From: Thermoproteota archaeon
GTDB taxonomy: Archaea; Korarchaeota; Korarchaeia; Korarchaeales; Korarchaeaceae
Assembly: GCA_027491435.1 (NCBI GenBank)
Contig: JAOZFG010000012.1
Span: forward strand, 1 to 54,773
Direction of reading: 5' to 3'
DNA: 54,773 nucleotides
A program made the translations under genes and the position numbers. Under the pieces are notes generated by a model. The model was not told the DNA's origin and searched no databases. It saw only the letters and a list, made by a program, of their open reading frames with translations. Of the stretch, positions 2,052 through 54,618 are shown in pieces. How positions within the stretch are numbered: position 1 is the first letter of the stretch; each line of letters starts with the position of its first letter.

Positions 2052-3335
2052 TCAGCTCTCATCCCAGTCCAGGAGCCTCTTCTCCCCCTCCAGCTTCTGA
2101 ATGTCCGTTATGTCCTGAACAACCTCCAAGGTTCCCAGATAATTGCCCTGTGAATCCCTAACGGGGAAGTACCTTATGTGAAGCTTCCTCCCCCTCATGT
2201 TTATCCAGAACTCCGCCACTTCCCTCTTTCCCTCCCTGAACTCCCTTATTATCCTCTCTACCAGGTGAACACTGCCAGGGGGGTGGCACAGGCTTACCTT
2301 CCTGCCTAGCACGGTCTTGGTCCTGAGGAAGAACATGCCCTCTTTCCTTGAGTAGTACCTGAGCCTGTCGTCGGCGTCCACGAAGGTTATCTCGAAGGGG
2401 AGGGTTTTCAGTATGCTGTCTATCTCCTCCAACCTCAGGTACCCCTGATCCAGCTTTAAATCCCCTTCTCTAATTAGAGGCATGGTGTCCACGGGCTCCA
2501 GGGTGCTCAACAAGGCCTTGACCTCCATAGGAAGCTTTGAGGCCACCTCCTCACTTATGCCCGACCTGACTTCGGGAGGGTACACGGGCTCTCCAGGAAC
2601 CCACTCGTCACCGGGCCTGACCTTGTAGTAGCCCACTTCAGCCTCCTCAAGCTTTATGGCCGACCACTCCCCCTCGCTTAGCATTGCCAGCACCGTCGGG
2701 TAGAGGATCTTGTTCTCCCTGAAGACCATGTCCATCATGTCCCTGGAAAGCTCCTCAGCAAGCTTCTTCACCTCCTCATCACTTCCCTTCCACAGGGCCT
2801 GGTTAAGCTTCCTTACCTTGGCCATCAGCTGATCCTGCTTGGTCCACAGCACCCTGGGAACGGCCGTAAGACCTCTCCTCTCTATGTAGGGGAAGAGCAG
2901 GAACTGTTCCTTCATGAAGTGAGCCCTGATCCCCCTAAGCTCTGCCGCCAGCTTCTTCAGTTCTTCCTTAACTCCGGGCTTGTCTAGAGACCTGGCGTAC
3001 AGGGTCAGCTTCTCCGCGTCCTTCATTATCTCGTCGTTCTCCATTATCAGGGTGTGCAGTGGATGTCCGGGGGTGAGGTCCTTGAGTTCGACGCCCAGCA
3101 AAGAGTCCCTGAACAGGGAAACGTGCAGGTCGCACAAGGCAGCTATTTCAAGTGGTGAGACGCCTGAAGCCACAAGCTCTTGCTCCACCAGTGGAATCTC
3201 CCAAGGAGAAACGTGTTTCAGGAGTTCCTCGAACCTTCCCTTAAGCTCCTCAAACTTGACGCCCCTGTGAAGGTCCTCTAGTATCGACTTAAGCTTGGCT
3301 AACTTCTCCTCCTGGGATAACGCCTCGCTGCTCAT
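2052..3335 (-). CDS. DUF438 + hemerythrin-like + PAS_10 domain protein (COG2461)
   Basis: EQEL..G...EI..LCDLH (DUF438); GHP..EN, HF.KE.LLFP and EN.ILYP (hemerythrin-like); LPFEITFVD..D, CHPP.S and G.LEV.QDIT (PAS_10). Confidence 0.9.
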   Translation of the reverse strand: MSSEALSQEEKLAKLKSILEDLHRGVKFEELKGRFEELLKHVSPWEIPLVEQELVASGVSPLEIAALCDLHVSLFRDSLLGVELKDLTPGHPLHTLIMENDEIMKDAEKLTLYARSLDKPGVKEELKKLAAELRGIRAHFMKEQFLLFPYIERRGLTAVPRVLWTKQDQLMAKVRKLNQALWKGSDEEVKKLAEELSRDMMDMVFRENKILYPTVLAMLSEGEWSAIKLEEAEVGYYKVRPGDEWVPGEPVYPPEVRSGISEEVASKLPMEVKALLSTLEPVDTMPLIREGDLKLDQGYLRLEEIDSILKTLPFEITFVDADDRLRYYSRKEGMFFLRTKTVLGRKVSLCHPPGSVHLVERIIREFREGKREVAEFWINMRGRKLHIRYFPVRDSQGNYLGTLEVVQDITDIQKLEGEKRLLDWDES

Positions 3336-3553: not shown

Positions 3554-4318
3554 ATGAGCAGTATTGGCAGGAGAGAGGTGTTTCAACTAATCAGGGAAGT
3601 TTTAGATCTCAGCGTGTACGAAGCTAAAGTATATTTATTACTCTTGGCTGGAGGGACGCTAACTGTAGGCGAGTTAAGTAGAAGGGGGAGGATTCCCAAG
3701 TCTAAAGTGTACGAAGCTCTGAAATCTCTAGCTTTGAAGGGGTTAGTGGTTAGAGTTAATTCTAGCCCCCTAAAGTATTCTACAGTTCCTGTAAGAAAAG
3801 GTATTTATAACAGGCTCTTTCAACTCAGAATGGAACTAGCTAGAAAGGAAAGATTAGCTGATGAGCTAATTAAGGTCTTGGAAGGATTTGAATTTGATGA
3901 GGGCGCTGTCGCCGTTAATTTGGAGGGCGAGTCCTTTAAGACCTCATTAACTTTTGATTTGATGATCGCTAGAGAGGAGGTATTACTAGCTATTTCTGAA
4001 TTAGCGCTAAATTTTAGTTGGCCTTTCAGTTATATTTCTTTAAATTCTAGCGTTAATTTTAAGTTTCTGACACCTAAAGTGCCTCCTTTAGTTAAGTACT
4101 TAATAGATAATGGCCTTTTTGAGAGAGTGGAAATTAAAGACTGCGATTACGTAAGGCAACCATTCCTAGTGATTGACGAAAAAATAACATACCTGATTAT
4201 AATTTCAGATTCTGGTAAGGTCTCCTCAGTGATCAGAGTTGAAGATAAGGACTTCTCGGAGCAGATGGCTTTTACGTTCCGTAAGATTTGGGAAAAATGT
4301 GAGGAAGGTGATTCGTGA
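3554..4318 (+). CDS. TrmB-family transcriptional regulator
   Basis: LS.YEAKVY..LL..G.LT..ELS...IPKSKVYE.L.SL..KGLV wHTH, followed by an effector-binding-like domain (FLVIDEK); lower GC than flanking genes. Confidence 0.85.
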   Translation: MSSIGRREVFQLIREVLDLSVYEAKVYLLLLAGGTLTVGELSRRGRIPKSKVYEALKSLALKGLVVRVNSSPLKYSTVPVRKGIYNRLFQLRMELARKERLADELIKVLEGFEFDEGAVAVNLEGESFKTSLTFDLMIAREEVLLAISELALNFSWPFSYISLNSSVNFKFLTPKVPPLVKYLIDNGLFERVEIKDCDYVRQPFLVIDEKITYLIIISDSGKVSSVIRVEDKDFSEQMAFTFRKIWEKCEEGDS

Positions 4319-4322
4319 GAGG

Positions 4323-5915
4323 TCATTCCCTATTAGGCAGGAAAAGCCCTACTATGTTCCTCAGTCCAAACGTCTTTATCACGTTGATCAGGAAGGCCAG
4401 GAAGCCCAGGGCCAGGAGGGCTCCGAAGAAGGCAGCGGCTCCCATGTAGGGCAGGTAGGCGTCAGTGTAGTAGATGGTTCTCCTGAGCATGCCCTCCCTC
4501 CAGGCCAGACCCATGGAGAAGGCCATCCCTATTCCCCCTATCATCCAGAGCCAGAAGTGAACGTTGCCCAGCTTTTCATCCAGCTCCACACCGGCTAACA
4601 TCGGAGTAAGAGCGTAGATAGCTGCGAACAATATGCTGCTCAACCCGGTAAGCAGGGTCTGGTGGAAGTGGAATCCGGGAACCCACTGGGTGTTGTGTAT
4701 TATCACGTTCAGGCCGTAGTTGGCCTGAATGAGCCCGGCCATCCCTCCAAAGAGGAAGCCCAGTATGCCGCCCAGCATGAACTTAATGGGGAGGGAGAGT
4801 TTGAGGGGCCTCGCAAGCCACAGGGTCATCATGGCTGTGAAGAAGGTAAGGCCCATGGTGAAGCCCTCGCCCCAGGTTATGAACTGCCCGCTGAACAGCC
4901 TGAGGAACCAGGGTTGAGGCCTGTCTGAGAGCAGATGGTGGCTCCAGACCCCCATAGATACTATCAGATCAGCCAGTATCACGTACCTGACAACTTCCTC
5001 AGCGTAAAGCTTCCTGTTGGCCAGGAGAGGGGCTAGCAGGTAAAGGGTGCCTGCGGTCCAGATCAGGACGTCCCCGTCAGCTATCATGTCCAGGCCCCAC
5101 CAGTACACGTTCTTGTAGATCAGAGGGTCCACCACCAATGGATTTATAGGCCCCACCAGCATCCTGTAAAGCATGAAGCCAGCTATCAAAACTCCAGCGC
5201 CAGCTAGCACCACTGCATTTATCACCGCATCTATTGAACCCCTGAAGACAGCCACCACGAAGACGGGCAACTTCTCCTTGGGGTCGTAGCCTCCGTCAGC
5301 CATTAGAGGCTTCTGCACCCCGAAGAACACCCTAGCCCTGTTGACAACTCCGCCCACGAATTTCATGAGCCCCTCTAGCCCGAATGAGGCCATTATCAGG
5401 CTTATGGCAGCGGTCTTAGTGGTCAGTCCTGGCTTCGAGACCCCCAGTATAGTGGCGAATATGTTGAACAAGAACATAAGGACGGATATCTCGGTGAGCA
5501 CCAGCCCAACTGAGAAAGTCAGGGCTCCTGGCTCGGGGAAGTACACCGGAAGGGGCCAGTAAACTGTGTAGAGCGGGGCGTAGTAGAAGAGGAAGCCCGA
5601 GAGCCATATGGTGAGCACCCCTATCGTCTGGGTCCACAGGTTTATAGAGGCCAGCCTGAGGCTGAACAGGGGCCTCTTAAGCAGGGTGGGCACCAGGAAG
5701 AAGAAGGCCCCCATGACGGCCATATAGGCCCATCCGTAGGTCCCCACCAGAGGATGCACTGTCATGACTGCGTAAAAGTGCTTCTCATCTATGAAGGGGA
5801 CGTTCATGAGCCTGACCCTCATCATCATGCCCTCTATCCCGGCCAGGGCCAGGAAGAGGGAGGCCATCACCACGTACTTCAGGGTCAACCTCTTAAGGGC
5901 CGCCTCCTCGCTCAT
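4323..5915 (-). CDS. Heme-copper oxidoreductase subunit I, B-family-derived; gNOR-like (putative nitric oxide reductase)
   Basis: Multi-TM protein; MTVH (helix II heme His), VWSHH, FHFH and GMLRR present; helix VI reads YWWGLDMIAD instead of FWFFGHPxVY; ATG 5915 overlaps the subunit II stop (ATGA). Confidence 0.85.
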   Translation of the reverse strand: MSEEAALKRLTLKYVVMASLFLALAGIEGMMMRVRLMNVPFIDEKHFYAVMTVHPLVGTYGWAYMAVMGAFFFLVPTLLKRPLFSLRLASINLWTQTIGVLTIWLSGFLFYYAPLYTVYWPLPVYFPEPGALTFSVGLVLTEISVLMFLFNIFATILGVSKPGLTTKTAAISLIMASFGLEGLMKFVGGVVNRARVFFGVQKPLMADGGYDPKEKLPVFVVAVFRGSIDAVINAVVLAGAGVLIAGFMLYRMLVGPINPLVVDPLIYKNVYWWGLDMIADGDVLIWTAGTLYLLAPLLANRKLYAEEVVRYVILADLIVSMGVWSHHLLSDRPQPWFLRLFSGQFITWGEGFTMGLTFFTAMMTLWLARPLKLSLPIKFMLGGILGFLFGGMAGLIQANYGLNVIIHNTQWVPGFHFHQTLLTGLSSILFAAIYALTPMLAGVELDEKLGNVHFWLWMIGGIGMAFSMGLAWREGMLRRTIYYTDAYLPYMGAAAFFGALLALGFLAFLINVIKTFGLRNIVGLFLPNRE

Positions 5916-6376
5916 CCTCTCACCACCCTTATGGCCCCCTCCACGAACATCTTGGGGTGCTCGGGCCCGGAGTACTCGGTGGACCTGACGGTATAGCTTC
6001 CCTCCTCCTTGAACACCCACACGATCCTGTTCTCGTACTTAGGAACCACCTGCATCTGGAAGACCATCTGTTTGGTGGCGTCGTTGAACACCCCGAACCC
6101 GTAGGTTAGGTCCTCACTGGTCACCACGAACTCAACCGGCACTTCCTTAGCTATCACTATCGAACCCTTCTTCAAGGGCTCCTCCTTCCCTCCCTTAACC
6201 ACGTAAAACTTGTGGTCCTTAACGACTACCCTGATCACCTCCTGGGGCTTATACTTGCCGTAGAGGTCCCACTCTATCCAAGGCACTAGGGGCGACAGCG
6301 TCAGAGCGTTGAACGTTACAGCGAACAGGGCTATTATCCCCAGCCATATCTTCTCCTCCCTCTCCATTTTAGGCAA
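5912..6376 (-). CDS. Heme-copper oxidoreductase subunit II (one TM + cupredoxin) lacking CuA ligands
   Basis: E..W N-terminal TM; TSEDLTYGF (canonical S.DV.HGF) and RSTEYSGPEHPKM (canonical C.EYCG.GH..M); SD AGGAGGTGA before TTG. Confidence 0.88.
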   Translation of the reverse strand: MPKMEREEKIWLGIIALFAVTFNALTLSPLVPWIEWDLYGKYKPQEVIRVVVKDHKFYVVKGGKEEPLKKGSIVIAKEVPVEFVVTSEDLTYGFGVFNDATKQMVFQMQVVPKYENRIVWVFKEEGSYTVRSTEYSGPEHPKMFVEGAIRVVRG

Positions 6377-6380
6377 GATA

Positions 6381-6488
6381 TCACCTCCTGGGCTTAGTTA
6401 GCTTCTTCGCGTACCAAGTCATGAACAGGATGGCGCCAAAGGCGTAGATCAGGTAGAACAAGTCCACAGCGTCTACCACCGAGATCAT
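6381..6488 (-). CDS. 35-aa single-TM protein, putative subunit IIa-like component of the oxidase
   Basis: MISVVDAVDLFYLIYAFGAILFMTWYAKKLTKPRR; AGGTG SD and TTTATA box upstream; its stop lies within the SD of subunit II; absent from the ORF track. Confidence 0.75.
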   Translation of the reverse strand: MISVVDAVDLFYLIYAFGAILFMTWYAKKLTKPRR

Positions 6489-6500
6489 AATGACACCTGT

Positions 6501-6590
6501 CATATAAAGGACGCCTTTCGTGTAATTAAGATTCTGCGAACATGTTAAGTGAAAAAAATTTGTGTGACACTAGGGTTATATTTAAGCTAA
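6501..6590. promoter_or_regulatory. Divergent promoter of the oxidase operon and HTH_10 regulator, with candidate activator box CGAACATGTTAA (6537-6548)
   Basis: Minus-strand TTTATA at ~6503-6508; plus-strand TTATATTTAA at ~6576-6585; AACATGTT palindrome between them. Confidence 0.5.
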
Positions 6591-6611
6591 GAGGGCCAAA
6601 AAGGGGAGAGC

Positions 6612-7226
6612 ATGATAACATGTACGGCCTTCCTGCCGAAGGGGTGCTGGCTGGGGGACTTGACCAGGTCCAAGCCTCAGGTTAAGGGCTCGGTCCTCTC
6701 CTTCATCATGGTCGTGGGTGAGGAGGTGAGGGCCACGTCAACGGTCATGCTAACTAACGCTGACGACGAGGTGGTGGACAGGGTCAAGTCCCACGATTCG
6801 GTTCACGAGGTTAAGGTCGTCAGCTGCTACAGGGGCTCCGTGGTCCTTAAGGTAAAGCACGATTGCCCGCTGGCAGAGGCTTTCGTGAACTCCTCCCCAC
6901 CGCCAACTCCCTTCGTCGTCCGGGAGGGTAGAGGGGAGTGGGCCGGAAAGGATGAGCCCGAGTACAGGGAGATGAGGGAGGAACTGTCCAAGAGGGGCGT
7001 GAAGGTGATAGCTAGGCACGTGAGGAGGAGAGACTTAACCCTGAGGCAGAGGATCATATTCCTGAGGGCCATTCAAGAGGGATATTACGATTATCCCAGG
7101 AGGATAACCCTATCTGAGCTTGCGGAGAAGCTGGGAGTTTCCAAGTCTTACCTCTCAGAGACCCTGATGAAGGTCGAGAGCAGGCTGCTCAAGGAGGCGG
7201 CCAGATCCCTATTAGTTGACAGTTAA
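6612..7226 (+). CDS. Bat-type HTH_10 transcriptional regulator (COG3413)
   Basis: C-terminal LT.RQ..I...A...GYYDYPRRITLSELAE.LGVSKS.LSE.L.K.E; N-terminal Cys motifs GCWL and HDCPL. Confidence 0.9.
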   Translation: MITCTAFLPKGCWLGDLTRSKPQVKGSVLSFIMVVGEEVRATSTVMLTNADDEVVDRVKSHDSVHEVKVVSCYRGSVVLKVKHDCPLAEAFVNSSPPPTPFVVREGRGEWAGKDEPEYREMREELSKRGVKVIARHVRRRDLTLRQRIIFLRAIQEGYYDYPRRITLSELAEKLGVSKSYLSETLMKVESRLLKEAARSLLVDS

Positions 7227-38606: not shown

Positions 38607-38784
38607 CTGGTTGGCGACCCTTTCCATGTACTACGGAGCCCTGGTAATAGTGACAGGCTTAATACTCTACTTCTCCCCAAAGATAAGGAGGAAGAGGTTC
38701 CTGAGCTACGTGAGGCTAGTCCACTTGGTAGGGGGGATACTCACAGGTATTTTAGCGCTGTTGACCTACCTCTCAGCCCCTTAG
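38596..38784 (+). CDS. Small two-TM protein with two His residues
   Basis: 62 aa; overlaps the nitroreductase stop; TGLILY...R..HL..G pattern. Confidence 0.6.
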   Translation: MSHNWLATLSMYYGALVIVTGLILYFSPKIRRKRFLSYVRLVHLVGGILTGILALLTYLSAP

Positions 38785-39683
38785 TAGTAGGACACCATGT
38801 ACTTTGAGATCGTATCAGTGAGGATCTCCTTAGCCCTATCGTAGCTCTTACTCCTCACCAGCCTGTTTAGCACGTCTGAGAGGAGGGCCCTAACCTGGCT
38901 CTCTGGAGCCCTCCTAGGTATGACAGCTGCCGCTAGAAGGCCCGTGTTAGACACTATAACTATCTTCTTGTCCTGCATCTCTATAGACGTGGGTATGTCC
39001 TCCATGGACTCTTTGACGAAGTCCTTCGCCAGGGACAGGAAGGCGCTCAAAGTGACGCTCCTGCTGTTGGCCGGGCTCCTTATCAGGGGCCTGCCCTTAT
39101 CGTCAATTATGATTATGTCCTCTATCTTCACAGGGGTTAAGATCCTCTCTCCGGTGAGCTTCTCGTAGAGCCATCCGAAGGCCTCATATAGACCGAATCC
39201 TGTCAGACCACTAGTCCATACGACCTGCCAGGGCCTATCCCCTAGCTTGTAGGGCTCGAGGAAGTCTATTATTTCACCGGGGGTGGCCGCGTTCTCTAGA
39301 TCAGCCTTGTTGGCCAGTATGAGCACGGGCACCTTCCTCCTGACCATAGACACAACCTTCCAGAACTCCTGCTTAGCTTCAAGGAACCTGGACCTATCAG
39401 CGGCGTCTATGACGAAGATTATAGCGTCAGCCCTCTCAGCGTATTCCACCCACATCTTCCTGAAGGCCTTCTGGCCTCCCAGGTCCCACACCTTCAGCTC
39501 CAGGTTTCTAACTGAAAACCTCTCGTAATTGGCTCCCATAGTGGGAATGGTGACTCCCGGATCTCCAGACCTCAAGTAGTTTAATATGGTTGTCTTTCCA
39601 GCCTTATCGAGCCCCAGCATGACGATTGTGACTGAGTTTTTGAAGCCCAGGAATAGCTTGATCAATTTTTTGGCCCAGGACAA
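38781..39683 (-). CDS. Arf-family small GTPase fused to a C-terminal longin-like domain
   Basis: Amphipathic N-terminal helix; GLDKAGKTT, TIPTMG, WDLGGQxxxRxxW, NKAD and SGLTG; C-terminal IIIIDDKGRPL..LSAFLS..F..E..SI....KIV..L.A longin pattern. Confidence 0.9.
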   Translation of the reverse strand: MSWAKKLIKLFLGFKNSVTIVMLGLDKAGKTTILNYLRSGDPGVTIPTMGANYERFSVRNLELKVWDLGGQKAFRKMWVEYAERADAIIFVIDAADRSRFLEAKQEFWKVVSMVRRKVPVLILANKADLENAATPGEIIDFLEPYKLGDRPWQVVWTSGLTGFGLYEAFGWLYEKLTGERILTPVKIEDIIIIDDKGRPLIRSPANSRSVTLSAFLSLAKDFVKESMEDIPTSIEMQDKKIVIVSNTGLLAAAVIPRRAPESQVRALLSDVLNRLVRSKSYDRAKEILTDTISKYMVSYY

Positions 39684-39794
39684 CCTTAACCCCCGCTTAC
39701 TAATATTTCTGACTTATATTTTAGCGTTGTCATTTATATGCGTTTTCCGAGAGATTCGACTCTACGAGGCTTTAAATAATGATGAGCTGCTAGT

Positions 39795-40211
39795 TTACAG
39801 CATTCTGTAGATTTCTGGCATCTCCCTTACTATTTCCGCTAATTTGAGGGAGTATTCCCCACCGTTGACCCTCTTAACTAATTCTTTTATTTTGTTTCTC
39901 ACTTTCAGGTTTATAGAGCCTTTTGAAGCAACACCTAGACTCATAACCATATTTCTGGTAGACCTCCTTAGGGTAAATGTTGCCGTGAATACTTCAAAAT
40001 CTCCTATCCTAAAGGAAACGTATTCGCCCCCTCCAGCGCTCATCGTGAAAGAACCTAAGCTTATTTTTTCTTTAATCTCCTCATTTAAAACTTCGTCCGG
40101 GAGCTTCATAACTATCTCAGGTCCATCAGTGCTCAGCGTAGCTAAGAAGACAAAGCCCTTATCGACATTATCTCCCTTCCTTTGCCTTGAGAGGGTGTCG
40201 CTAGCTCCCAT
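39795..40211 (-). CDS. Putative uDENN/NPRL2-type longin-domain protein
   Basis: FVFLATL...GPEIV.KLP and FT.TFTL..STRN....LGV patterns; TTATAAAA ~30 bp upstream (track start 40217). Confidence 0.55.
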   Translation of the reverse strand: MGASDTLSRQRKGDNVDKGFVFLATLSTDGPEIVMKLPDEVLNEEIKEKISLGSFTMSAGGGEYVSFRIGDFEVFTATFTLRRSTRNMVMSLGVASKGSINLKVRNKIKELVKRVNGGEYSLKLAEIVREMPEIYRML

Positions 40212-40217
40212 GATCAA

Positions 40218-41072
40218 TCAGGTATCTGTACTATGCGACTTTTATAACCTTTTATTATTTGCTGAAGCTGTTCTCACGGATGAAAGTTTAGCATTTCTAA
40301 GCTAATTCACTAGCTTATTAAATTTAAATGGCTAGTAACATCCCTTATATAAAAGTAACTGCGTTATTAAGAAAAATCTTTTAATTAATTTATTATAGCG
40401 TTATGCGCTTGAGGATCACCGCTTTTTCCCAATTAAAATTTATCGTAATGAGCTTAATAAGGCTAAAATAATTATTTATATAGATTGTAGGAAGTGAGGA
40501 AGTATAAGCTTAAATGTGAAAAGTTAATAAGATAAAAATTACTGATCAAAAATAGCTGTAGTTAGCTCTTATGAACCTAAGTGATCGGATCTCTTTCAGA
40601 AAAATGTAGAGCTATAATAATTAAATACATTTCGAGCCATTATCAAATTAATGATTATTTAATTATAAAGTCCAGTAAATGTATAAAAATGAAAAGAACT
40701 CAACCTCAAAGGAGCGGATCTCGTTCGTTACTGTGAGTCTGAAATTCATATATTGATTCAGTTTAAGCATAAGTTGTTAAGGGTCTTCTTACAGATATAG
40801 GAGAAATGCGTAAAGTTAGTTGTAGTTGAATCTCTAGCGGTTAGCTTGGGGCCTAATTTGACATCGCCTAAAATTAAGCGAATTTCGGTTCCAAAATCCA
40901 GTTTCAGATATCCAGTTTTGAGAGTTTTTCACAAATACTTTATAAAGGTTAGGCGGCCAATCTCATACCTCCTTTTGAAACGAAGTGACTTTAGATTCCA
41001 TCATTAGGAACATATAGCATTTCCTTATGGAAAATAATACTTATATATGAAACACTCCCCAGTTAACGTGGG
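40218..41072. promoter_or_regulatory. ~850-bp AT-rich non-coding region with the cas promoter and palindromes
   Basis: No credible ORF; TTCC-N7-GGAA (40996-41010) and TTTCC-N4-GGAAA (41020-41033) precede TTATATA (41041-41047); extra TTTATAAA at ~40939-40946. Confidence 0.55.
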
Positions 41073-41414
41073 GTGATCCCCTTGGAATGTATGAATGAAA
41101 TCTCTAGCGTCCTGAGGTTTTTTGCCGATCAGAAGAATTACAGCTATATAGACAGGATAGCAAACGCCCTAACCCCCGATCCCGCTGAAAAGGCCATACA
41201 AGAAGCCCTAAGGCATTTAAGATCCCTTTATGACTCTTCCTTTGATTATAAAGACGAGAAAAGCGGAAAAACTTTGAAAGCCGTTAGAATAGGTGATAAG
41301 CCCGTAATTCTGCCCAAAATGCCGAAAGAAGAATGTGTTAGAGAGGTGTTAGAGGCTCTCTCTGATAGCTCCTTTAGGAGGAGGCTTGCTATCCTGTCTC
41401 TCTCATGGGGGTGA
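41073..41414 (+). CDS. csa5: Type I-A small subunit Csa5 (Cas11)
   Basis: YSYIDRIANAL......AI.EALR pattern; first gene before cas7. Confidence 0.85.
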   Translation: MIPLECMNEISSVLRFFADQKNYSYIDRIANALTPDPAEKAIQEALRHLRSLYDSSFDYKDEKSGKTLKAVRIGDKPVILPKMPKEECVREVLEALSDSSFRRRLAILSLSWG

Positions 41415-41418
41415 TGGT

Positions 41419-42426
41419 ATGTTCTTATCGGCTGGCGTCAGGTTTGAGGCCAATGTTGAGGCCTTGAATTCGGTAGAGACCACTGGTAATTTTTCCAAAC
41501 ACAGAAAGGTTCCCTACATAATATGGAATGAGGAAAAGGAATCATATGACGTGATATACGTCCCGGCTATGAGTGGAGAGAGCTTGGCACATGCATATCA
41601 GGAGCTCCTAGTTAGGGAGGCCCTTAACCTAGACAAGAATGCGCCAATATGCGACGACTGTAGAAGGGGAGAGTTCTTCAAGTCTATGAATAAGGACCAC
41701 TTAAAGGGAAAAGTAGACGTCTCCAAACTCAAGCAGATTACTCCTCAGGAAGTTGAGAAATCCATTGTGAATAACTGCCTGATTGAAGATATAGGTGGAT
41801 TTTTGTACGCTGAAAAGCCCCCTGTAAAGAGGACTTCATCGTTCCAGTTTAGTTACGCAGTGCCAGTGAAGAATGTAGCGTTGTTGAGCGTCACGGAGCC
41901 CTTACTTCACGCCAGACATGCTCAGATGAGGGAGATGAAAGGGAAGTCTGAGAGGGAAGGGGCTGCAGAGCAAATGATATACTACGTAGAGGCTGGAACT
42001 GCGATCTACGGTTTCACCTTCAACCTGGACCTCGACTCCATAGGTTTAAGCTCATTTACCGGGGAGCCCATAATAGGGAAGAAAGATCTAGAGTTTAGGA
42101 AGGAGGTCGCCGTGAGGGCCTTTATAAGGATGATAAGCAGCAAGCAGTTCGGGGCTAAGTTAAGTAGGTTCTTCCCCGCTGGAGACATTCTAGGGGTGTA
42201 CGTGTCTCTGACCCAGCACCCGTTCTCTGTAACTTCACCGATATACAAGGATGCCATCTCCATGACCGCTAGGAGGTTAGATGTGCTAAAGAGTAAGTTC
42301 AACGAGAAAGTCTCCCTGATAGTATACGACTCGATGGAGGGGGTTGAAGGCCTTAGCTACGATTTCATAGAAGTAGTTAAGACTCCCGAGGAGGTAGGAG
42401 CCCTCCTAATAGAAAGGGGGTTCTGA
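41419..42426 (+). CDS. cas7: Type I-A Cas7 (Csa2)
   Basis: EALN.VE..GN..KHR, VPA.SGESLAH.YQ, EDIGGFL, VKRTS, HARH, YYVE and GAK.SRF.P. Confidence 0.95.
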   Translation: MFLSAGVRFEANVEALNSVETTGNFSKHRKVPYIIWNEEKESYDVIYVPAMSGESLAHAYQELLVREALNLDKNAPICDDCRRGEFFKSMNKDHLKGKVDVSKLKQITPQEVEKSIVNNCLIEDIGGFLYAEKPPVKRTSSFQFSYAVPVKNVALLSVTEPLLHARHAQMREMKGKSEREGAAEQMIYYVEAGTAIYGFTFNLDLDSIGLSSFTGEPIIGKKDLEFRKEVAVRAFIRMISSKQFGAKLSRFFPAGDILGVYVSLTQHPFSVTSPIYKDAISMTARRLDVLKSKFNEKVSLIVYDSMEGVEGLSYDFIEVVKTPEEVGALLIERGF

Positions 42427-43142
42427 TGAAATTCCTCTTAGTGAGGGTGAGGTTTAACTGGGGCTTTGCGGCCAGGTTTCAGCCTCAAAGCAAAATGAGG
42501 ATGGCCTTCAAGTACCCCCCTCCCACCACTTTATTAGGGGCCCTGGCCTATCCCTTAATCAGACTTAGAAGCGGTAGGGTTGAGTTAGTAGCCAAAGGAA
42601 AGAAGTTAACCAGTGCTACGGAGCAATTTAAGAAGTACTTTGAGGAGGTTGCCGTTTCTATGCAGGATGAACCTTCAGTTTACGGCAGCTATTTGAGAGT
42701 TAACAGAATCTATAGAGGAAGCGTTGACTTCGGGGTTACGGCCCTACCATCCTCTTTCCTTTACTCTAACGGAGAGGCTACAGCAGACCTGGTTTACGTG
42801 ATGAAGGAGGTGCCTGAAGGTTTGGAGAGGGCCGCTTGGGGGATATCCAGAATAGGGTCTAGAGAATCTGTAGTCTCTGTGGACTCGGTCTATGTTGGGG
42901 ATGCTTCCCTTAAGAGGGGAGAAAGCGCTAAGACGAGGTTTTCTTTCTACCTAAAAGATTACAAGGTTAGAGGCAATGGCACTGTGCTTTACGTCGTGGA
43001 CTGGAGGGAGCAGGAAATTGGCAATTACGCTAAGGCCGAGAGAGTCCCTTATTACTACCCCAAGGGGGAGGTAGAGGTCTCCGGAGAACTAAGCTGGTTC
43101 GAACTAAATTTGCCTTGGGGTAAGGAGGTGGTGTTACATTAA
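42426..43142 (+). CDS. cas5: Type I-A Cas5
   Basis: WGF, YPPPTTLLGALAY and RIGSRES.VSV. Confidence 0.93.
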   Translation: MKFLLVRVRFNWGFAARFQPQSKMRMAFKYPPPTTLLGALAYPLIRLRSGRVELVAKGKKLTSATEQFKKYFEEVAVSMQDEPSVYGSYLRVNRIYRGSVDFGVTALPSSFLYSNGEATADLVYVMKEVPEGLERAAWGISRIGSRESVVSVDSVYVGDASLKRGESAKTRFSFYLKDYKVRGNGTVLYVVDWREQEIGNYAKAERVPYYYPKGEVEVSGELSWFELNLPWGKEVVLH

Positions 43143-43143
43143 G

Positions 43144-44367
43144 GTGAGAATTGATCTGCCAGTTTCTGGCATTGTGAGCGAGCTAATTTACCTGGGGATA
43201 GCCCTGATCATAGAATATGGAGGGGCTGATCCAGCAGGTCCAGGAGTTATAGAGATAGATCAGGGCTTATTCAAGGACTCTCTACCTGAAATAATAAGAA
43301 GTGTGCTGGAACAAGTGGATGAAAAAGTGAAAGATTTTCCTGGGACTAAAGTAGCCGGAAATGATAAAAACAGTTACAACAAGGCTTACTTGACGAACTT
43401 CGGGATTAACCTCCCTGAAGGGATTACTTACCCAGCTCTTTTCAGAGATGTCTCCAACAGGACGGCTGATCTAATAAAGGGGGGTAAGTTAAACCCGGTT
43501 AACTCAATAAGATCGATAGATGGGAACTTCCTCGGGGTTAAAGGGCCTGAAAACTTTATAATGCCCTCTATAATAAAGCAGATGGAGTTTTATGAGAAGA
43601 GCACTGTATTTATGAAGCCCACCACAGGCCCAAAGTCGATGATAGAAATGGACCCGTTTTGGTTCACTCTGCTCTCTCTTGGGTTCCTCTGGGGATACTC
43701 CGGCTATTATGGGGGGGCTTACTACATTACGACATATCCAGGTATAGAGGCAAGGCTTGAAGAGCACTCTCAGATATTGGACACGATAAACATGGTTTCC
43801 TACACCAACCTGAGGAGTAAAAGAAGGCTCGATAAGGAGGAAGTTTATGAGTTGGGGCTCTCCCTAGATATAGCTTTAAAGGCCGAGAGCTCAGAGGCTG
43901 TAAGTGGCTATAGGTGGCCGGTTAGGCTTTACAAGGAGGCGGTAGTAGGACAGGCTTATACAGCTGAGAAGAGCCTCGATCTAAACTTAGGTGACATGAT
44001 AAATTTTATGATAAGATACGCCTCTAATTGGAGGAAATTAAGTAAGAAACCAACTGTAAAGTTAAATAATAGGGAAGTATCTCCCTTAGAAGCTTTAATT
44101 GCTTTGGCTGAGAGGGAGCTGAGCTCCAATAAGGGGGTTAGGGGAGATAACGAGATGGTGGCCTACTTGCTGGTCAAGGACATACATAGGGCCATATCAA
44201 GTGGCAAGCCTAGTCTAATGGAAGAAACCCTGTACAGGGCTGCCAGGAAATCGAGAGGAGCGAGGGAGTCTGGAGAAGTGGATGGCACGCTTAGCTACAC
44301 TTTGTACACGTTCTTCAGCAGGAGACACCTAGAAGTCCTTCTAGGTGTCCTAAATGAGCTTAGTTGA
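43144..44367 (+). CDS. cas8a: Type I-A large subunit (Cas8a/Csa4-like)
   Basis: Position between cas5 and cas3; GNDK and PSI.K..EFYE motifs; divergent sequence. Confidence 0.75.
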   Translation: MRIDLPVSGIVSELIYLGIALIIEYGGADPAGPGVIEIDQGLFKDSLPEIIRSVLEQVDEKVKDFPGTKVAGNDKNSYNKAYLTNFGINLPEGITYPALFRDVSNRTADLIKGGKLNPVNSIRSIDGNFLGVKGPENFIMPSIIKQMEFYEKSTVFMKPTTGPKSMIEMDPFWFTLLSLGFLWGYSGYYGGAYYITTYPGIEARLEEHSQILDTINMVSYTNLRSKRRLDKEEVYELGLSLDIALKAESSEAVSGYRWPVRLYKEAVVGQAYTAEKSLDLNLGDMINFMIRYASNWRKLSKKPTVKLNNREVSPLEALIALAERELSSNKGVRGDNEMVAYLLVKDIHRAISSGKPSLMEETLYRAARKSRGARESGEVDGTLSYTLYTFFSRRHLEVLLGVLNELS

Positions 44368-45904
44368 CGAATATAAGAGACTGGTGAGGGGCCTCTTTAA
44401 TAACCCAGGCACCAGAGTCATAATTGAAGAGGCATTGAAGAGCTTAGATGAAGATTTGGAGGGAAAACCTTTCTACGTTATTAGAGCCCCTACAGGATAC
44501 GGCAAGACTACCTTTTCGTATACCCTGGCTTTACACGCCTTAAAGGATAACAGTCGCTTTGAAAAGGTCATACATGTGCTTCCTTTCAGGGCAATAATAG
44601 AGGACGCTTACCATAAGTCCTCTTTTCTCTTTCCCTTTGTCGGCAGGCAGATGATGGGAGTTCATGAAAGCCCGTTCCTGCTAAAAGCCCTTACATTTAC
44701 AACTGTGGACACGTTCATCTACGACTTGATGAAGCTTAACACCATGAAGTCCTCAGCTATAAGGGAGGGAAGGGAGTACGGGTACGACTACTTCACGCAG
44801 GCAGGCATAGTTTTGAGCGCAATTGTCTTCGACGAAGCTCATGTAGCACTAGAGGGGGAGATGGCCTCCGCTTTTCTAACTGCTTTAGAGGTGCTCATGC
44901 ACCTTGGAACTCCAATATTCATCTTAACAGCCACTATTAGCGAAAACTACTCGAAAAGACTTAGGAGGCGGGCCGAGGAGAGGGGATATATCTATAGAGT
45001 ATTCCCCGAGTTCGGTCAGCAGGTAAATGATGATTTCTTCAAGAGGGAGGAGGCTAAACAGATAAATATAAGCGTCGCCGACGGATTTGACCTAGTTAAT
45101 TTGGTGAGTGGGGATAAGAGGTACCTGATAGTAGTCAATACAGTTAAGAGAGCCCAGGAGATATACTCTAGGTTGAGATCTCAACTGAAGGAGAGAGATA
45201 TCTTATTAATTCACAGCAGATTTACTCCTAGCGATAGGAGAGCTAAAATAAGTAAGTTAGAGTCTTTAAAAAATAAAGAGAGCTGGGTAGTAGTTTCAAC
45301 TCAGGTAATAGAGGCAGGAGTAGATATTTCCAGCGATGTGCTAATAACTGAGCTAGCCCCTCCTACAAGCCTAATCCAAAGGATGGGCAGGAACGCCAGA
45401 TTCGACGAAAAAAGTGGAGAAATTCACATAATACTTAGTGAGAAGTGCCCTCCCTATCCAGATGACCTCTGTGAAAGGACAAGGAATTGGTTGAAGGAGA
45501 AATACCAGAAATTGAAGCCCAGGGATCCCAGCACTTATCAGGGGCTGTTGAACGAAGTTTACCAAGTTTTAAAGGGAAGACGTTATCCAGACCTGTTGAC
45601 CTTCATGCTGGATCCTCTGGTAAGATCAGATGAGATGTCTAGCTATATAAGGAATCTCTCTGGAAGGAATTTCCTTAGAGAGTATCCGATCCAGCTATTC
45701 GTAGGCAAGGAAGCTGTTCCAGTCACTCCATATATACTTAGGGAGCTCATCAGAAGGGGAGCTAAAATAAGTTGCGGTGAAAAATGTAAATTAACCGAGG
45801 GAAACCTCCAGAACGTCGTGGAGAGAATAGCTAACTGGGAGGACATAAAGTTGACTCTGGAAAACCAAGATTTCTACGATAAGGAGCTTGGATTAAGGTG
45901 GTAA
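44354..45904 (+). CDS. cas3: Cas3' helicase
   Basis: APTGYGKT, DEAH, TAT, VNTV.RA, HSRF...DR, STQVIEAGVDI and QRMGR.AR. Confidence 0.95.
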   Translation: MSLVDEYKRLVRGLFNNPGTRVIIEEALKSLDEDLEGKPFYVIRAPTGYGKTTFSYTLALHALKDNSRFEKVIHVLPFRAIIEDAYHKSSFLFPFVGRQMMGVHESPFLLKALTFTTVDTFIYDLMKLNTMKSSAIREGREYGYDYFTQAGIVLSAIVFDEAHVALEGEMASAFLTALEVLMHLGTPIFILTATISENYSKRLRRRAEERGYIYRVFPEFGQQVNDDFFKREEAKQINISVADGFDLVNLVSGDKRYLIVVNTVKRAQEIYSRLRSQLKERDILLIHSRFTPSDRRAKISKLESLKNKESWVVVSTQVIEAGVDISSDVLITELAPPTSLIQRMGRNARFDEKSGEIHIILSEKCPPYPDDLCERTRNWLKEKYQKLKPRDPSTYQGLLNEVYQVLKGRRYPDLLTFMLDPLVRSDEMSSYIRNLSGRNFLREYPIQLFVGKEAVPVTPYILRELIRRGAKISCGEKCKLTEGNLQNVVERIANWEDIKLTLENQDFYDKELGLRW

Positions 45905-45905
45905 C

Positions 45906-46577
45906 GTGGGTTGCATATCCTTCAAGGAGCCGAGAGAGCCCTTAGAGGTACACCTTCATTTAACGGCCCACTTCATAGATAGGGCCTTCTTGAGGAGGGG
46001 TTACCACAAGAGGATTGGTGACAGAGGAAGGGAGGTCTTGCTGCTGGCGGCCATATTACACGACATCGGGAAGGGCCACAAAAGTTTTCAGTCCAGGGGG
46101 ACTTTCCCAGGACACGAGCTATACTCAGGTTACCTAGTCCACAGGATGGTTGAGGAGGGGTTAATTGAGCTAGGTGATTGGGGGGTTCCCTTATCGGCTG
46201 CCATAGCTCTGCACCACCACACTATGAAGGGAAGGAGCGTCTTTGAAGATTTCGAGTTAACAGAGGAGTGCCGCTCTCAAGTTGAGGAGGTCATCCAATC
46301 ATTTAACCTAGAGGGGAGCCTCAATAACCTAGAGAAAGCTTCGCTAAAAGAAATTAATGAGTGGTTATATAAAATCAAGGGCTGGATAAGGAAACCGGGC
46401 AACCTAAAGAGGGTCTACCTTATACTTTATCCTTTAATAATAGCTGACAACATGGCGGCTTCGATAAGGGGGGGAAGCACCCTGCTTAGCAGCGAACTGC
46501 AGACTAGCTATTGGCCGGTGGTGCTGTATGAGAACTTATGTAATCACCCTTGGTTACGACGAAAAGTTTGCCCTTAG
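45906..46577 (+). CDS. cas3'': Cas3'' HD nuclease
   Basis: E.L..HL, LHDIGK, HE..S, ALHHH and ADN.AA. Confidence 0.93.
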   Translation: MGCISFKEPREPLEVHLHLTAHFIDRAFLRRGYHKRIGDRGREVLLLAAILHDIGKGHKSFQSRGTFPGHELYSGYLVHRMVEEGLIELGDWGVPLSAAIALHHHTMKGRSVFEDFELTEECRSQVEEVIQSFNLEGSLNNLEKASLKEINEWLYKIKGWIRKPGNLKRVYLILYPLIIADNMAASIRGGSTLLSSELQTSYWPVVLYENLCNHPWLRRKVCP

Positions 46578-47142
46578 ATTCCTGCTGAGGCACCCGGTAG
46601 AGGAGGGAGATAAGGTTTACATAGTCATGCCTGAGGGCGGCGATGAGAAAGTCTTAAACGCCTTTAGAAACTTAAATAAGTTAGTTGACGGCGTTAAGCC
46701 AATAGAGCTGAACTTAGATAGACCTGTGGAGGAAGTCTCCAGGATCTCCAGGTTGTTAGCTGAGGAAACTTCAGGTGACCTCTTCCTGTGCCTAAGCGGT
46801 GGTATGAGGGCTGTCGTGGTGATAACCTTGTTGGCAGCACAGAAACTGGTGAGGGAGACCACTAGGAGGGCCTGGCTGGAAATCGAGTTTGAGAACTTAT
46901 CCGGGTACATGAGAATGCCCCTAAACGTGATAACCCTGCCTAGGAACGAGAGATACCTTAAGATATTAAAGGCCATTAGGGAGCTGGGTAAGACGTCCAT
47001 CAGAAACCTGAGCTTATCTACGGGAATACCCATAACCACGGTGCACAGGGAATTAAGGAGGATGATTGCTGCAGGGCTCGTCAGTAAGGACTTGAACCTA
47101 ACGGAGGAAGGGTGGGCTTACCTCAAGCTGTACTCAGACTAG
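46528..47142 (+). CDS. csa3: Csa3 CARF-wHTH regulator
   Basis: TLGYDEKF.LR and LSGGMR motifs plus C-terminal wHTH. Confidence 0.92.
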   Translation: MRTYVITLGYDEKFALRFLLRHPVEEGDKVYIVMPEGGDEKVLNAFRNLNKLVDGVKPIELNLDRPVEEVSRISRLLAEETSGDLFLCLSGGMRAVVVITLLAAQKLVRETTRRAWLEIEFENLSGYMRMPLNVITLPRNERYLKILKAIRELGKTSIRNLSLSTGIPITTVHRELRRMIAAGLVSKDLNLTEEGWAYLKLYSD

Positions 47143-47221: not shown

Positions 47222-48436
47222 ATGTTATCCCTATGGAACGGAATGCCTGTATGCTTTCCCAAGTTTGATGGATCCCAATACTTATTGGATCCCTGGTTAC
47301 TAAATTATGATTTAAGTAGGATTAGGTACTCTAGATTTAAAATAAATAATCGCATCGTGAGCTACGTTTATTACATGCTGGTTTTTCTCCCTCAATTCTG
47401 GAACCTATTTACCCTTAGGGTAACTGCTGAGAACTTGATGGAGCGACTATCTTACACGCTCAAGCGAGGGTCTAGTAGCTTACTGTTAAGTAAGCTCTAC
47501 AACATAGATGGATTTAGCAAGGGAGCCGTTAGTAGAGGGGTGTTTGAAGAGCTCAAGATTAGTAAGAGGCTTATGGACCTTTACATGGAGACCTTGGATC
47601 TCATCTTTTCTTTAACTCCCCTAACCGTGTATAAGGAGCTACTCTGGTCGCCCAACCTCTGCACGTATGTGTATAGAACCGACTTAGATTATCTGAACTC
47701 TTACTGCTACGGCCGCTTCCTAGCCTTCCTGAGGCCTGACCTGATCAGGCGCGTAGAGGGGGACAAGTGGGTCGCCTGGAGTAAACTCGTGGAGTTGTGC
47801 CCAAAGGGAGTTAAGGAGCGTAAGATCTACTTGCTTATACCTGAAGATATGTTGGGGATAGTGAAAGCCATTGGTCCAGCCATTTACAAGGTCACTGGCG
47901 AGGTAGAGGCGAGGTATAAGGCGAACTCCCTGACCAAGAAGTTGTATAGGGCAGTGGAATTGGAACCTTTTAGGCTATCCCCTGAGGAGGTCGTTCCCTT
48001 CTTATACCCCTATCACCTCAGTGAAGAGGACTCCCAGAGGAGGGTTATAAGCTATTACGTAAGGACAAGCATTGTTTACGACATCCTAGACGAGATAAGG
48101 GAGAGGTTTCCCTTCTACTCTGGGAGGTCGACTCCGTTGAATTTCAAGAAGAGACATATGTTATCGAAAGTTGAGGACGGTGGAGATTACCTGAATTACA
48201 TAGCGGTGAACCCGAGCTACGTGATCAGCCTGTTGAAGAGTTATAACCTTAACAATCGCCACGGCATACACGCTAGGAGGGTACTAGATGGCGACGTCCT
48301 AAGTAAGGTCATCTCAATCGAAGAAAGCTCCTTAGCTAGGTTATATGACACCCTCTTCTTCCTACACTTAGAACAGAGGAAGAGCGTATTCACTTGCATT
48401 AAGGATTTCTTCTCCCTCAAGGAGGAACCTCCATGA
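47222..48436 (+). CDS. Hypothetical protein in defence island
   Basis: 404-aa ORF with own TTTTAA box ~25 bp upstream; no family recognised; 20-nt convergent overlap with drmB. Confidence 0.7.
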   Translation: MLSLWNGMPVCFPKFDGSQYLLDPWLLNYDLSRIRYSRFKINNRIVSYVYYMLVFLPQFWNLFTLRVTAENLMERLSYTLKRGSSSLLLSKLYNIDGFSKGAVSRGVFEELKISKRLMDLYMETLDLIFSLTPLTVYKELLWSPNLCTYVYRTDLDYLNSYCYGRFLAFLRPDLIRRVEGDKWVAWSKLVELCPKGVKERKIYLLIPEDMLGIVKAIGPAIYKVTGEVEARYKANSLTKKLYRAVELEPFRLSPEEVVPFLYPYHLSEEDSQRRVISYYVRTSIVYDILDEIRERFPFYSGRSTPLNFKKRHMLSKVEDGGDYLNYIAVNPSYVISLLKSYNLNNRHGIHARRVLDGDVLSKVISIEESSLARLYDTLFFLHLEQRKSVFTCIKDFFSLKEEPP

Positions 48437-54074: not shown

Positions 54075-54618
54075 CTGGAACACCCTTCTGGTTCGGTTTA
54101 AAAGTGAGTGGCACCTCTTTTCCAAAGAATAAGTCGAGTCCTATAGAATTGGTGTAACTCTGGGTATTGACGGAGGCAGTAGAAGGTATGGTAGTGCTGT
54201 CGACTTGAGGGCACCCCGTGCTTTGACCTAGTTTTTCAACCATTAAGCCGATCAGCCGCCACCTCTTGAGGCCTGTAAAATCACTATCGGTGATAAATGT
54301 TAACACTTTTTCTCCTTAGCCTTCTTAGGAGGATCAGCTCCCTCGGCTCTTACTTACTAAACAACATTAGAGCTCTGTGTTCCGCGCTATCCAGCAACTT
54401 ATAGGGGAAGTTCATCGCAGCTTCGTCCGCAACGTCCCTTCAAGGTCCTCCTTTCCACAGATGGCAGCGGCCCCTTCAGAACATTAATTTGCAGTATCAT
54501 CCTCGATCATTAGGACAAATTTTTGACTTAAATGGATGGTAACTAATTGACATAAAATTTAAAAGTATAAGCCCCGATGGATTTCACGTTCTAGCTATTG
54601 ATAGGGGGTGAACAATCC

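Follow-up and report, generated by a model that had tools for sequence, protein, structure and literature searches.

Gene layout of the operon

We analyzed a three-gene operon for a heme-copper enzyme that lies on a 54,773-nucleotide stretch of DNA from a Thermoproteota archaeon; this whole stretch is called the window below. The operon encodes a subunit I, a cupredoxin-type subunit II and a short membrane peptide, and its products are compared with gNOR (norGH), a family of predicted nitric oxide (NO) reductases. The features of the operon are as follows.

4323-6488, minus strand: heme-copper oxidase (HCO) operon, three overlapping or closely spaced genes
6488..6381, minus strand: membrane peptide of 35 amino acids (aa) with one hydrophobic helix (P0002)
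6376 or 6367..5912, minus strand: subunit II (NorH-like), one transmembrane helix and a cupredoxin domain without CuA; weak NCBIfam CoxB/SoxA matches
5915..4323, minus strand: subunit I (NorG-like), 530 aa (P0001); Pfam COX1, 2.1e-62
5076..5090, minus strand: codons D276-M-I-A-D280 of helix VI (D276 = 5090..5088, D280 = 5078..5076)
4935..4940, minus strand: codons H326-H327, the two kept metal ligands of helix VII, within the invariant W324-S325-H326-H327

The open reading frames (ORFs) of all three genes are intact, and the ATG of subunit I overlaps the stop codon of subunit II (ATGA). A longer subunit I starting from a GTG at 6020 (a 565-aa ORF) was considered and rejected as too long, since the shorter, 530-aa form is covered to 98-100% by homologues that are themselves 525-545 aa long. 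For subunit II, the relatives conserve the methionine at position 4 as their first residue, which makes the ATG at 6367 (giving 151 aa) a likelier start than the TTG at 6376. Relatives of subunit I are encoded in at least 570 species genomes (one genome per species), and counts out of 80 given here and below refer to the best 80 of these loci. The subunit II gene adjoins the subunit I gene in 77/80.

Metal ligands of subunit I

Helix VI of subunit I carries the sequence Y-W-W-G-L-D276-M-I-A-D280. In an alignment of 18 diverse family members (51-84% identity), both aspartates are invariant, as are H54, H326, H327, H416 and H418. Subunit I thereby keeps the ligands of the low-spin heme (H54, H418) and of the high-spin heme (H416), the neighboring metal site is made up of D276, H326 and H327, and D280 lies one helix turn away. 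The nearest relatives outside the family, P0141 (WWGLH-SYV-N) and P0158 (GH-TLV-N), have the same 50-residue spacing to the histidine pair and align without gaps. Because this alignment is gapless and equally spaced, D276 can be placed at the position of the helix-VI CuB histidine and D280 at that of the cross-link tyrosine. Automated alignments gave other pairings: phmmer set L275 against the CuB histidine of an A-family chain, and hhalign, run against nine B-like sequences (probability 100), inserted a gap of 6 columns that brought G-D282-V-L-I-W opposite G-H-P-V-V-Y. D282 varies within the family (D/N/L).

The motif W-[WFY]-G-L-D-x-x-A-D was found in 310/311 relatives (119/120 hits of a first search, 120/120 hits of a second search and 71/71 locus ORFs). 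Ser320, six residues before the histidine pair, is also invariant in the 18-member alignment, and it occupies what we take to be the position of the C-family oxidase tyrosine in helix VII. Subunit I thus has neither the CuB with three histidines nor the His-Tyr cofactor of the A-, B- and C-family O2 reductases (D276 and D280 stand there). It also departs from cNOR and qNOR, which have an FeB with three histidines and a glutamate and a heme c subunit or a fused N-terminal domain; here one histidine is an aspartate and the partner is a cupredoxin protein.

Subunit I matched 57 PDB oxidase sequences. AlphaFold2, run on the 18-row alignment, gave a model (mean predicted local distance difference test score [pLDDT] 76, predicted TM-score [pTM] 0.81) in which one long helix, 264-299, bears both aspartates. 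When the model was searched with Foldseek, oxidase subunit I chains were recovered at a TM-score of ~0.7, with A-family entries ranking first.

CuA ligands of subunit II

Subunit II was aligned to the CuA domain of the Thermus ba3 oxidase (2cua/1ehk_B). In this alignment Y92 falls at the first CuA histidine and S132 and S136 at the two cysteines, while the second CuA histidine (H140) and the methionine (M143) are kept. Across 62 family rows, the tyrosine and both serines are found in all 62, the histidine in 60 and the methionine in 58; E134 and Y135 are likewise invariant. As judged from these ligand positions, subunit II is shown to be unable to hold a binuclear CuA centre.

An earlier note on this DNA, made from the letters alone, had pointed to an aspartate in place of the helix-VI histidine (codon 5088-5090) with the other five metal histidines intact, to the lack of a cross-link tyrosine, and to Tyr, Ser and Ser at three CuA ligand positions. 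Each of these observations was confirmed here: the five histidines are invariant in the 18 members, D280 invariably occupies the tyrosine position, and the Tyr/Ser/Ser set holds in 62/62 rows. The kept H140 and M143 had gone unmentioned.

Assignment to the gNOR family

According to Murali et al. 2024 (PMC11214002), gNOR is defined by an aspartate in place of an active-site histidine and by a cupredoxin subunit II without CuA residues, for which quinol oxidation was suggested; the family is known from Bacteria and Archaea, with 156 GTDB genomes and 913 metagenome hits. A table in PMC8756737 gives the residue at the tyrosine position as D in gNOR and E in cNOR and qNOR, and assigns 0 proton channels to gNOR. 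Sievert et al. 2008 and also Hemp & Gennis 2008 are cited there for the family, and norGH is described in PMC8906906 as a quinone-oxidising, non-electrogenic NO reductase. The placement of D276 and D280 matches these descriptions (Asp for His, PMC11214002; D at the tyrosine position, PMC8756737).

By alignment, all of the published gNOR sequence hallmarks that were tested are found in the window proteins, and the operon almost certainly belongs to the gNOR (norGH) family. The earlier note had named the same family, an assignment that the published hallmarks (PMC11214002, PMC8756737) support. We conclude that the window enzyme is an additional member of a published, never purified family; the finding is correct, and it is not new. 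A literature search pairing gNOR with archaeal taxon names gave, among the papers listed, only papers without gNOR.

Size, spread and phylogeny of the family

A word-indexed homologue search returned 970 proteins at E <= 1e-10 among 8000 scored candidates, of which the best 120 are 48-84% identical to the window protein. A second search, from the distant member P0123, returned 3201 proteins at E <= 1e-20, again among 8000 candidates. In a 50%-clustered library, only two close full-length representatives were found (712 and 416 bits), and the next full-length protein scored 132 bits at 30% identity. Because the score drops from 416 to 132 bits, the family is tight and well separated. A protein-atlas search gave generic COX1 clusters only, and no Sulfurimonas, Sulfurovum or Persephonella names were found among the cluster members or the P0123-search matches listed.

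The best 80 loci include 22 from archaea (Nitrososphaerota 10, Bathyarchaeota 6, Thermoproteota 5, Geothermarchaeota 1) and 58 from bacteria, 56 of them Chloroflexota. The earlier note had described the family as known mostly from bacteria; this overstates the rarity of archaeal members, given these counts and the statement in PMC11214002 that both domains are represented. Its expectation that such enzymes would be mislabelled as cytochrome c oxidase was borne out, the relatives being named 'cytochrome c oxidase subunit 1' or 'cbb3-type cytochrome c oxidase subunit I' by their sources. One Bathyarchaeia assembly has gNOR at two separate loci, with proteins that are 63% and 61% identical to that of the window; two copies are thus carried by some archaea.

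A tree was inferred from 61 rows (36 family members and 25 full-length outgroups of at least 430 aa, with fragments omitted) using an unrooted IQ-TREE quick search under LG+G4, with the SH-like approximate likelihood ratio test (SH-aLRT) as the only support measure. The rows do not include the named gNOR type sequences (Sulfurimonas, Sulfurovum, Persephonella, Damo_1118), and the outgroups are labelled by their own motifs only, NCBIfam annotation of 10 of them being generic and a tblastn search of plasmids having yielded no reference sequence with a family label. All D...D sequences form one clade (SH-aLRT 100, stem 0.84). Within it, the window subunit I groups with three Thermoproteota metagenome-assembled genomes (MAGs; support 100); Bathyarchaeia join next (98), and after them a Thermoprotei/Methanomethylicia pair (98). 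The family clade also contains L078, a sequence from Methylomirabilota that is nested among Nitrososphaerota sequences (99). Candidatus Methylomirabilis oxyfera is a published holder of gNOR (Damo_1118-1119; PMC6094997), and L078, which comes from another Methylomirabilota MAG, serves as an indirect anchor to the published family.

The gNOR-type family falls among the non-A sequences, next to the H...N and B-like groups, with SH-aLRT 87-89 on long branches of this unrooted quick tree. P0141 is placed beside this family at SH-aLRT 89, with long branches. The order of the outgroups is not reliable, as the branches are long and family names are lacking. The nearest outgroups of the gNOR clade are P0141, which carries Nitrospinota/Nitrospirota names, and P0153 (462 aa), which has Q-H in place of the helix-VII H-H and no helix-VI histidine.

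Host genome and distribution within the genus

The host genome is 99.5% complete and comprises 43 contigs with a total of 1.64 Mb; the window is its contig 6. A reverse gyrase (1249 bits) is encoded in this genome, in support of the earlier description of the host as thermophilic. The gNOR subunit I is the only PF00115 match. The genome search for nirK, nirS and nosZ that the earlier note had suggested was run: nirK and nirS were not found in the 99.5% complete genome, nor was the NosZ propeller, the latter being a weak negative because its control matched in no genome. A narG was not found either, the only matches being 25-bit ones to another molybdoenzyme. The genome does encode cytochrome bd and a CtaB-type heme O synthase (254 bits; contig 43, 77173-77991, minus strand). 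CtaA was not found, in a search whose control missed Sulfolobus too.

Among 20 same-genus genomes gNOR is present in 5, and it is absent from all 20 further relatives; the 20 same-genus genomes yielded no heme-copper enzyme besides it. Heme O synthase was considered as a tracer of gNOR and rejected: CtaB is over the cut-off in 19/20 same-genus genomes, with or without gNOR. A CtaB-type synthase is more widespread in the genus than heme-copper enzymes are (19/20 versus 5/20 genomes).

In a DNA comparison with five same-genus genomes, only 4292-7189, that is, the operon and a divergent regulator gene of the HTH_10 family, is kept together in the two holders (G002 and G011), and the genes that flank this interval in the window are located elsewhere in both. 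Because only this interval stays together while its flanks differ, the operon and the HTH_10 gene are an accessory cassette with its own regulator.

To survey other holders of the family, 30 genomes were sampled from the 80 loci: every distinct archaeal genome (21) and 9 from bacteria. NirK was over the cut-off in 2/30, with sub-threshold matches of 125-165 bits in three more, and NirS was found in 1/30, marginally.

Regulators, promoter and neighboring genes

The features surrounding the operon are as follows.

6489..6611, strand not assigned: divergent promoter region, with a TATA-like ATATAAC at 6575-6581 and a palindrome core, AACATGTTCGCA, at 6535-6546
6612..7226, plus strand: HTH_10-family regulator, divergent; Pfam HTH_10, 1.2e-16
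3554..4318, plus strand: TrmB-family regulator, convergent; Pfam TrmB, 9.2e-19
3335..2052, minus strand: DUF438-hemerythrin-PAS protein; Pfam PAS_10, DUF438 and Hemerythrin

An HTH_10 cluster adjoins the operon in 10/80 loci, all archaeal. The TATA-like ATATAAC and the palindrome core are invariant in the window and three relatives (80-84% protein identity). The palindrome stands ~30 nucleotides downstream of the TATA-like box and reads CGAACATGTTCG in the three relatives and AACATGTTCGCA in the window, where the 12-mer is unique at 0 mismatches; at up to 2 mismatches, 4 matches were found in the window versus 1.64 expected. From its place near the transcription start, it is reasonable to infer that the palindrome is a candidate repressor site or operator, and the HTH_10 regulator may act on it. 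A one-mismatch copy of the palindrome core AACATGTTCG, reading AACATGTACG, occurs at 6617-6626, at the start of the HTH_10 gene and 70 nucleotides away, and the two copies may be a pair of regulator sites. The palindrome was also tried as a marker of a wider regulon and was not singled out: six exact 10-mers occur genome-wide, and one-mismatch matches are about twice as frequent as in a reversed control.

The TrmB-family gene was considered as part of the system and rejected, being present in 1/80 loci and without a match in five same-genus genomes; this regulator is probably unrelated to the operon. The DUF438-hemerythrin-PAS protein is a possible O2- or NO-responsive sensor, with a homologue no more than 6 kb from the operon in 11/80 loci. 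Its adjacency is not fixed in the genus, the gene being on other contigs in G002 and G011.

The genes that recur at up to 6 kb from the 80 loci code for hemerythrin-domain proteins (13), Crp/FNR regulators (12) and HTH_10 regulators (10), followed by UbiA/CtaB-like prenyltransferases (7), an unannotated 491-aa membrane protein (7), small ferredoxins (6) and DUF166 (5). No nir or nos gene was found among these recurrent neighbor clusters. At the loci of the three closest relatives (L002-L004), ferritin-like (Dps/rubrerythrin-type) and Fur-family genes lie 3′ of subunit I; they are absent from that place in the window.

A probable third subunit

The 35-aa peptide was matched by tblastn in 8/80 loci. 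A hydrophobic ORF of 25-70 aa that ends within a few bases of subunit II lies directly 5′ of it in 28/56 loci examined. These small upstream ORFs are archaeal and Chloroflexota ones and share the pattern D/E-x-x-[DW]-x-x-Y...K-x-x-K. Complex prediction docked the window peptide on subunit I at approximately 362-406 and 466-473 and on subunit II at 28-29 and 98-101. The prediction scored 0.92 versus 0.00 for the best of 3 controls, with runs sharing at least 98% of contacts and a partner pLDDT of at least 88. That mark was reached by 58/80 solved complexes and 2/110 mismatched pairs, calibration counts that hold only roughly here because our own alignment was used.

On this model, the peptide would probably be the third subunit of the enzyme, a counterpart of subunit IIa in the ba3 oxidase, which is a solved one-helix subunit of roughly 35 aa. 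The docking result may itself reflect the likeness to that subunit.

Proposed function

A site with two histidines and two aspartates would bind non-heme iron rather than copper, because its ligands are hard and oxygen-rich, because cNOR and qNOR have a glutamate at the D280 position, and because a mimic with a 2-His-1-Glu iron reduces NO. That mimic is an engineered myoglobin with NO reductase activity (Lin et al. 2010), cited as a model of the gNOR site in PMC11214002. Electrons would enter from the membrane quinol pool, since CuA has been lost, as in the bo3 oxidase, and cytochrome bd implies that such a pool exists. The site would then carry out the reaction 2 NO + 2 e- + 2 H+ -> N2O + H2O, and in the published models (PMC8756737, PMC8906906) it would pump no protons. 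As far as the residues allow a judgement, four-electron reduction of O2 by the usual mechanism is not possible, because neither the tyrosine nor its cross-link histidine is present.

In its host, the enzyme would most likely scavenge NO made by neighbors or by abiotic chemistry. Because no other nitrogen-oxide reductase was found in the host, removal of exogenous NO is the most economical role, and we think it rather probable that NO is the physiological substrate of a quinol-driven scavenging reaction, this activity being a predicted one.

Several points weigh against this reading. No purified or assayed gNOR was found in the literature searched, and NO reduction, like the non-heme iron and the electron donor, is a prediction for the whole family. 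The automated alignments differ on the residue at the histidine position (L275 by phmmer, D282 by hhalign), the orientation of the D276 and D280 side chains towards the metal is presumed, and the Foldseek ranking of the model, with the A family first, gives no discrimination in favor of the B family. A preprint describes a His-to-Glu change of a heme ligand in gNOR (10.1101/592808), and this change is absent from the window subunit I. The missing NO-forming enzyme in the host and in most of the sampled holders fits scavenging and would equally fit a substrate other than NO. The absences in the 30 holders are soft, the completeness of these MAGs not being given. The hemerythrin and Crp/FNR neighbors would suit an O2-related role too.

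The enzyme could instead be a respiratory, energy-linked NO reductase, the terminal oxidase of an anaerobic respiration that draws NO from nitrite-reducing neighbors or from an unrecognised nitrite reductase of the host itself. In PMC11214002, gNOR is regarded as a denitrification enzyme adapted to sulfidic settings. The host has a quinol pool, quinol-using enzymes and no second heme-copper enzyme, and NirK is over the cut-off in two of the sampled holders. However, nirK, nirS, narG and nosZ were not found in the 99.5% complete host genome, the published models have no proton channel and are non-electrogenic (PMC8756737, PMC8906906), the operon is accessory (5/20 same-genus genomes), and NirK is not over the cut-off in 28/30 and NirS is lacking in 29/30 of the sampled holders. 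Because no nitrite, nitrate or nitrous oxide (N2O) reductase genes were found in the host, the enzyme does not appear to be part of a denitrification pathway there. We consider respiratory denitrification unlikely and favor quinol-driven scavenging of NO over it.

We regard as quite unlikely that the enzyme is an unconventional quinol oxidase that removes O2 or peroxide by a route without the His-Tyr cofactor and so shields an oxygen-sensitive thermophile. Such a role would suit a lineage otherwise without heme-copper oxidases and the DUF438-hemerythrin-PAS gene near the window operon, as well as the hemerythrin (13/80), Crp/FNR (12/80), ferritin-like and Fur (3 loci each) neighbors, which are typical of O2, iron and NO stress. 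It is opposed by the replacement of both the tyrosine and its histidine partner, and by the serine (Ser320) at what we take to be the C-family tyrosine position. The host, moreover, already has cytochrome bd for O2, and none of the three oxidase families can reduce O2 with four electrons without the tyrosine (PMC11214002).

Another chemistry at the heme/non-heme site, with N2O, nitrite, sulfur or another small oxidant as substrate, would make the gNOR name a misnomer; we hold this to be improbable. An acidic active site is a feature of cNOR and qNOR, and the idea has no positive evidence for any alternative substrate behind it. The activity of the family is predicted only in the literature searched, most of the sampled holders lack a source of NO, and subunit II has an invariant Y92, E134 and Y135 and a near-invariant H140 (60/62). 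New chemistries within the superfamily are plausible, as another heme-copper branch has been proposed to be an N2O reductase (PMC11214002). Nevertheless, the carboxylate at the tyrosine position is shared with cNOR and qNOR (E; PMC8756737), and a 2-His-1-carboxylate iron beside a heme reduces NO in engineered myoglobin (cited in PMC11214002).

That the operon is a decaying oxidase remnant without catalytic function, as the loss of three CuA ligands, one CuB ligand and the tyrosine might suggest, is contradicted by the conservation pattern and is highly improbable: all three frames are intact, the replacements are kept in 310/311 relatives across both domains, five metal histidines remain, and the family has thousands of members (3201 at E <= 1e-20 among 8000 candidates).

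More broadly, and only tentatively, gNOR may be, rather than any enzyme of denitrification, a laterally moving cassette of three subunits with its own regulator, by which strict or nearly strict anaerobes without a nitrogen-oxide pathway destroy an external small oxidant, be it NO or another. If this is true, 'aerobic respiration' or 'denitrification' assigned from annotation would be wrong for many uncultured archaea and Chloroflexota. The oxidase label would falsely imply aerobic respiration in a lineage with no other heme-copper enzyme, and the finding of no NO-forming nitrite reductase over the cut-off in the host and 28/30 holders argues that gNOR often stands outside denitrification. The supplementary data described in PMC11214002 may already cover these points of host context. 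While the window copy is one of thousands, the family lends itself well to a first purification, for which a thermophilic version may be stable.

Other features of the window

A cas cluster of the type I-A kind occupies 41386-47142 on the plus strand, with DevR/Csa2, Csx9, a Cas3 helicase, an HD nuclease and a Csa3 regulator. It lies within a stretch of low G+C (GC) content at 40-48 kb (GC 0.40-0.47 versus ~0.53 elsewhere), and a search of 39600-41450, next to the cas genes, turned up no repeat array. Also beside the cas genes, at 48417-54125 on the minus strand, are a 1308-aa helicase-C protein and then a 593-aa protein with an MrfA Zn-binding domain, a pair that may be another defence or repair module. 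A 300-aa protein encoded at 38781-39683 on the minus strand gives a strong match to Arf small GTPases (PF00025, 6e-50). Proteins of this kind are unusual except in eukaryotes and Asgard archaea, and the host here belongs to the Thermoproteota.

Comparison with known systems

The ba3 oxidase of Thermus thermophilus (1ehk) resembles the window enzyme in the fold of subunit I, in a helix VI of the form WW-x-x-[metal ligand], in the HNT motif before helix X, in a single-transmembrane cupredoxin subunit II that aligns to 1ehk_B and 2cua, and presumably in an extra one-helix subunit of ~35 aa. The subunit I match to the ba3 chains is only 49-52 bits. Whereas ba3 has G-H-P-I-V-Y with the His-Tyr cross-link, a three-histidine CuB and CuA, the window enzyme has D...D and Y/S/S, residues by which O2 reduction through the ba3 mechanism would be excluded.

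E. coli bo3 likewise combines a cupredoxin subunit II without CuA with a quinol donor, a comparison made in PMC11214002; it is, however, an A-family O2 reductase with CuB and the tyrosine intact, and the quinol site of gNOR is only proposed. cNOR and qNOR (NorB/NorZ) share with the window enzyme a heme with a non-heme metal, a carboxylate at the oxidase tyrosine position (E versus D in gNOR; PMC8756737), the lack of a tyrosine cofactor and the predicted absence of proton channels, and qNOR also uses quinol. They differ in having a heme c subunit or a fused N-terminal domain instead of a cupredoxin partner, and gNOR replaces one of their histidines. sNOR and bNOR are B-family-like, two-subunit candidates for NO reduction, and P0141 has its WWGLH-SYV-N at the identical spacing, but the helix-VI histidine is kept, an asparagine stands at the tyrosine position and these enzymes are described as containing CuA. 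The sNOR label for P0141 is one that we infer from the motif alone.

The window operon has its own particulars relative to gNOR (norGH): a Thermoproteota host of hyperthermophile type, no nir, nos or nar gene found, its standing as sole heme-copper enzyme, the 35-aa peptide gene and the HTH_10 regulator. With gNOR it shares the aspartate for the helix-VI histidine, the aspartate at the tyrosine position, the two helix-VII and three heme histidines, the cupredoxin subunit II without CuA, a common clade with a Methylomirabilota homologue and the cytochrome c oxidase label given by pipelines, and it differs from gNOR in none of the defining features compared here.

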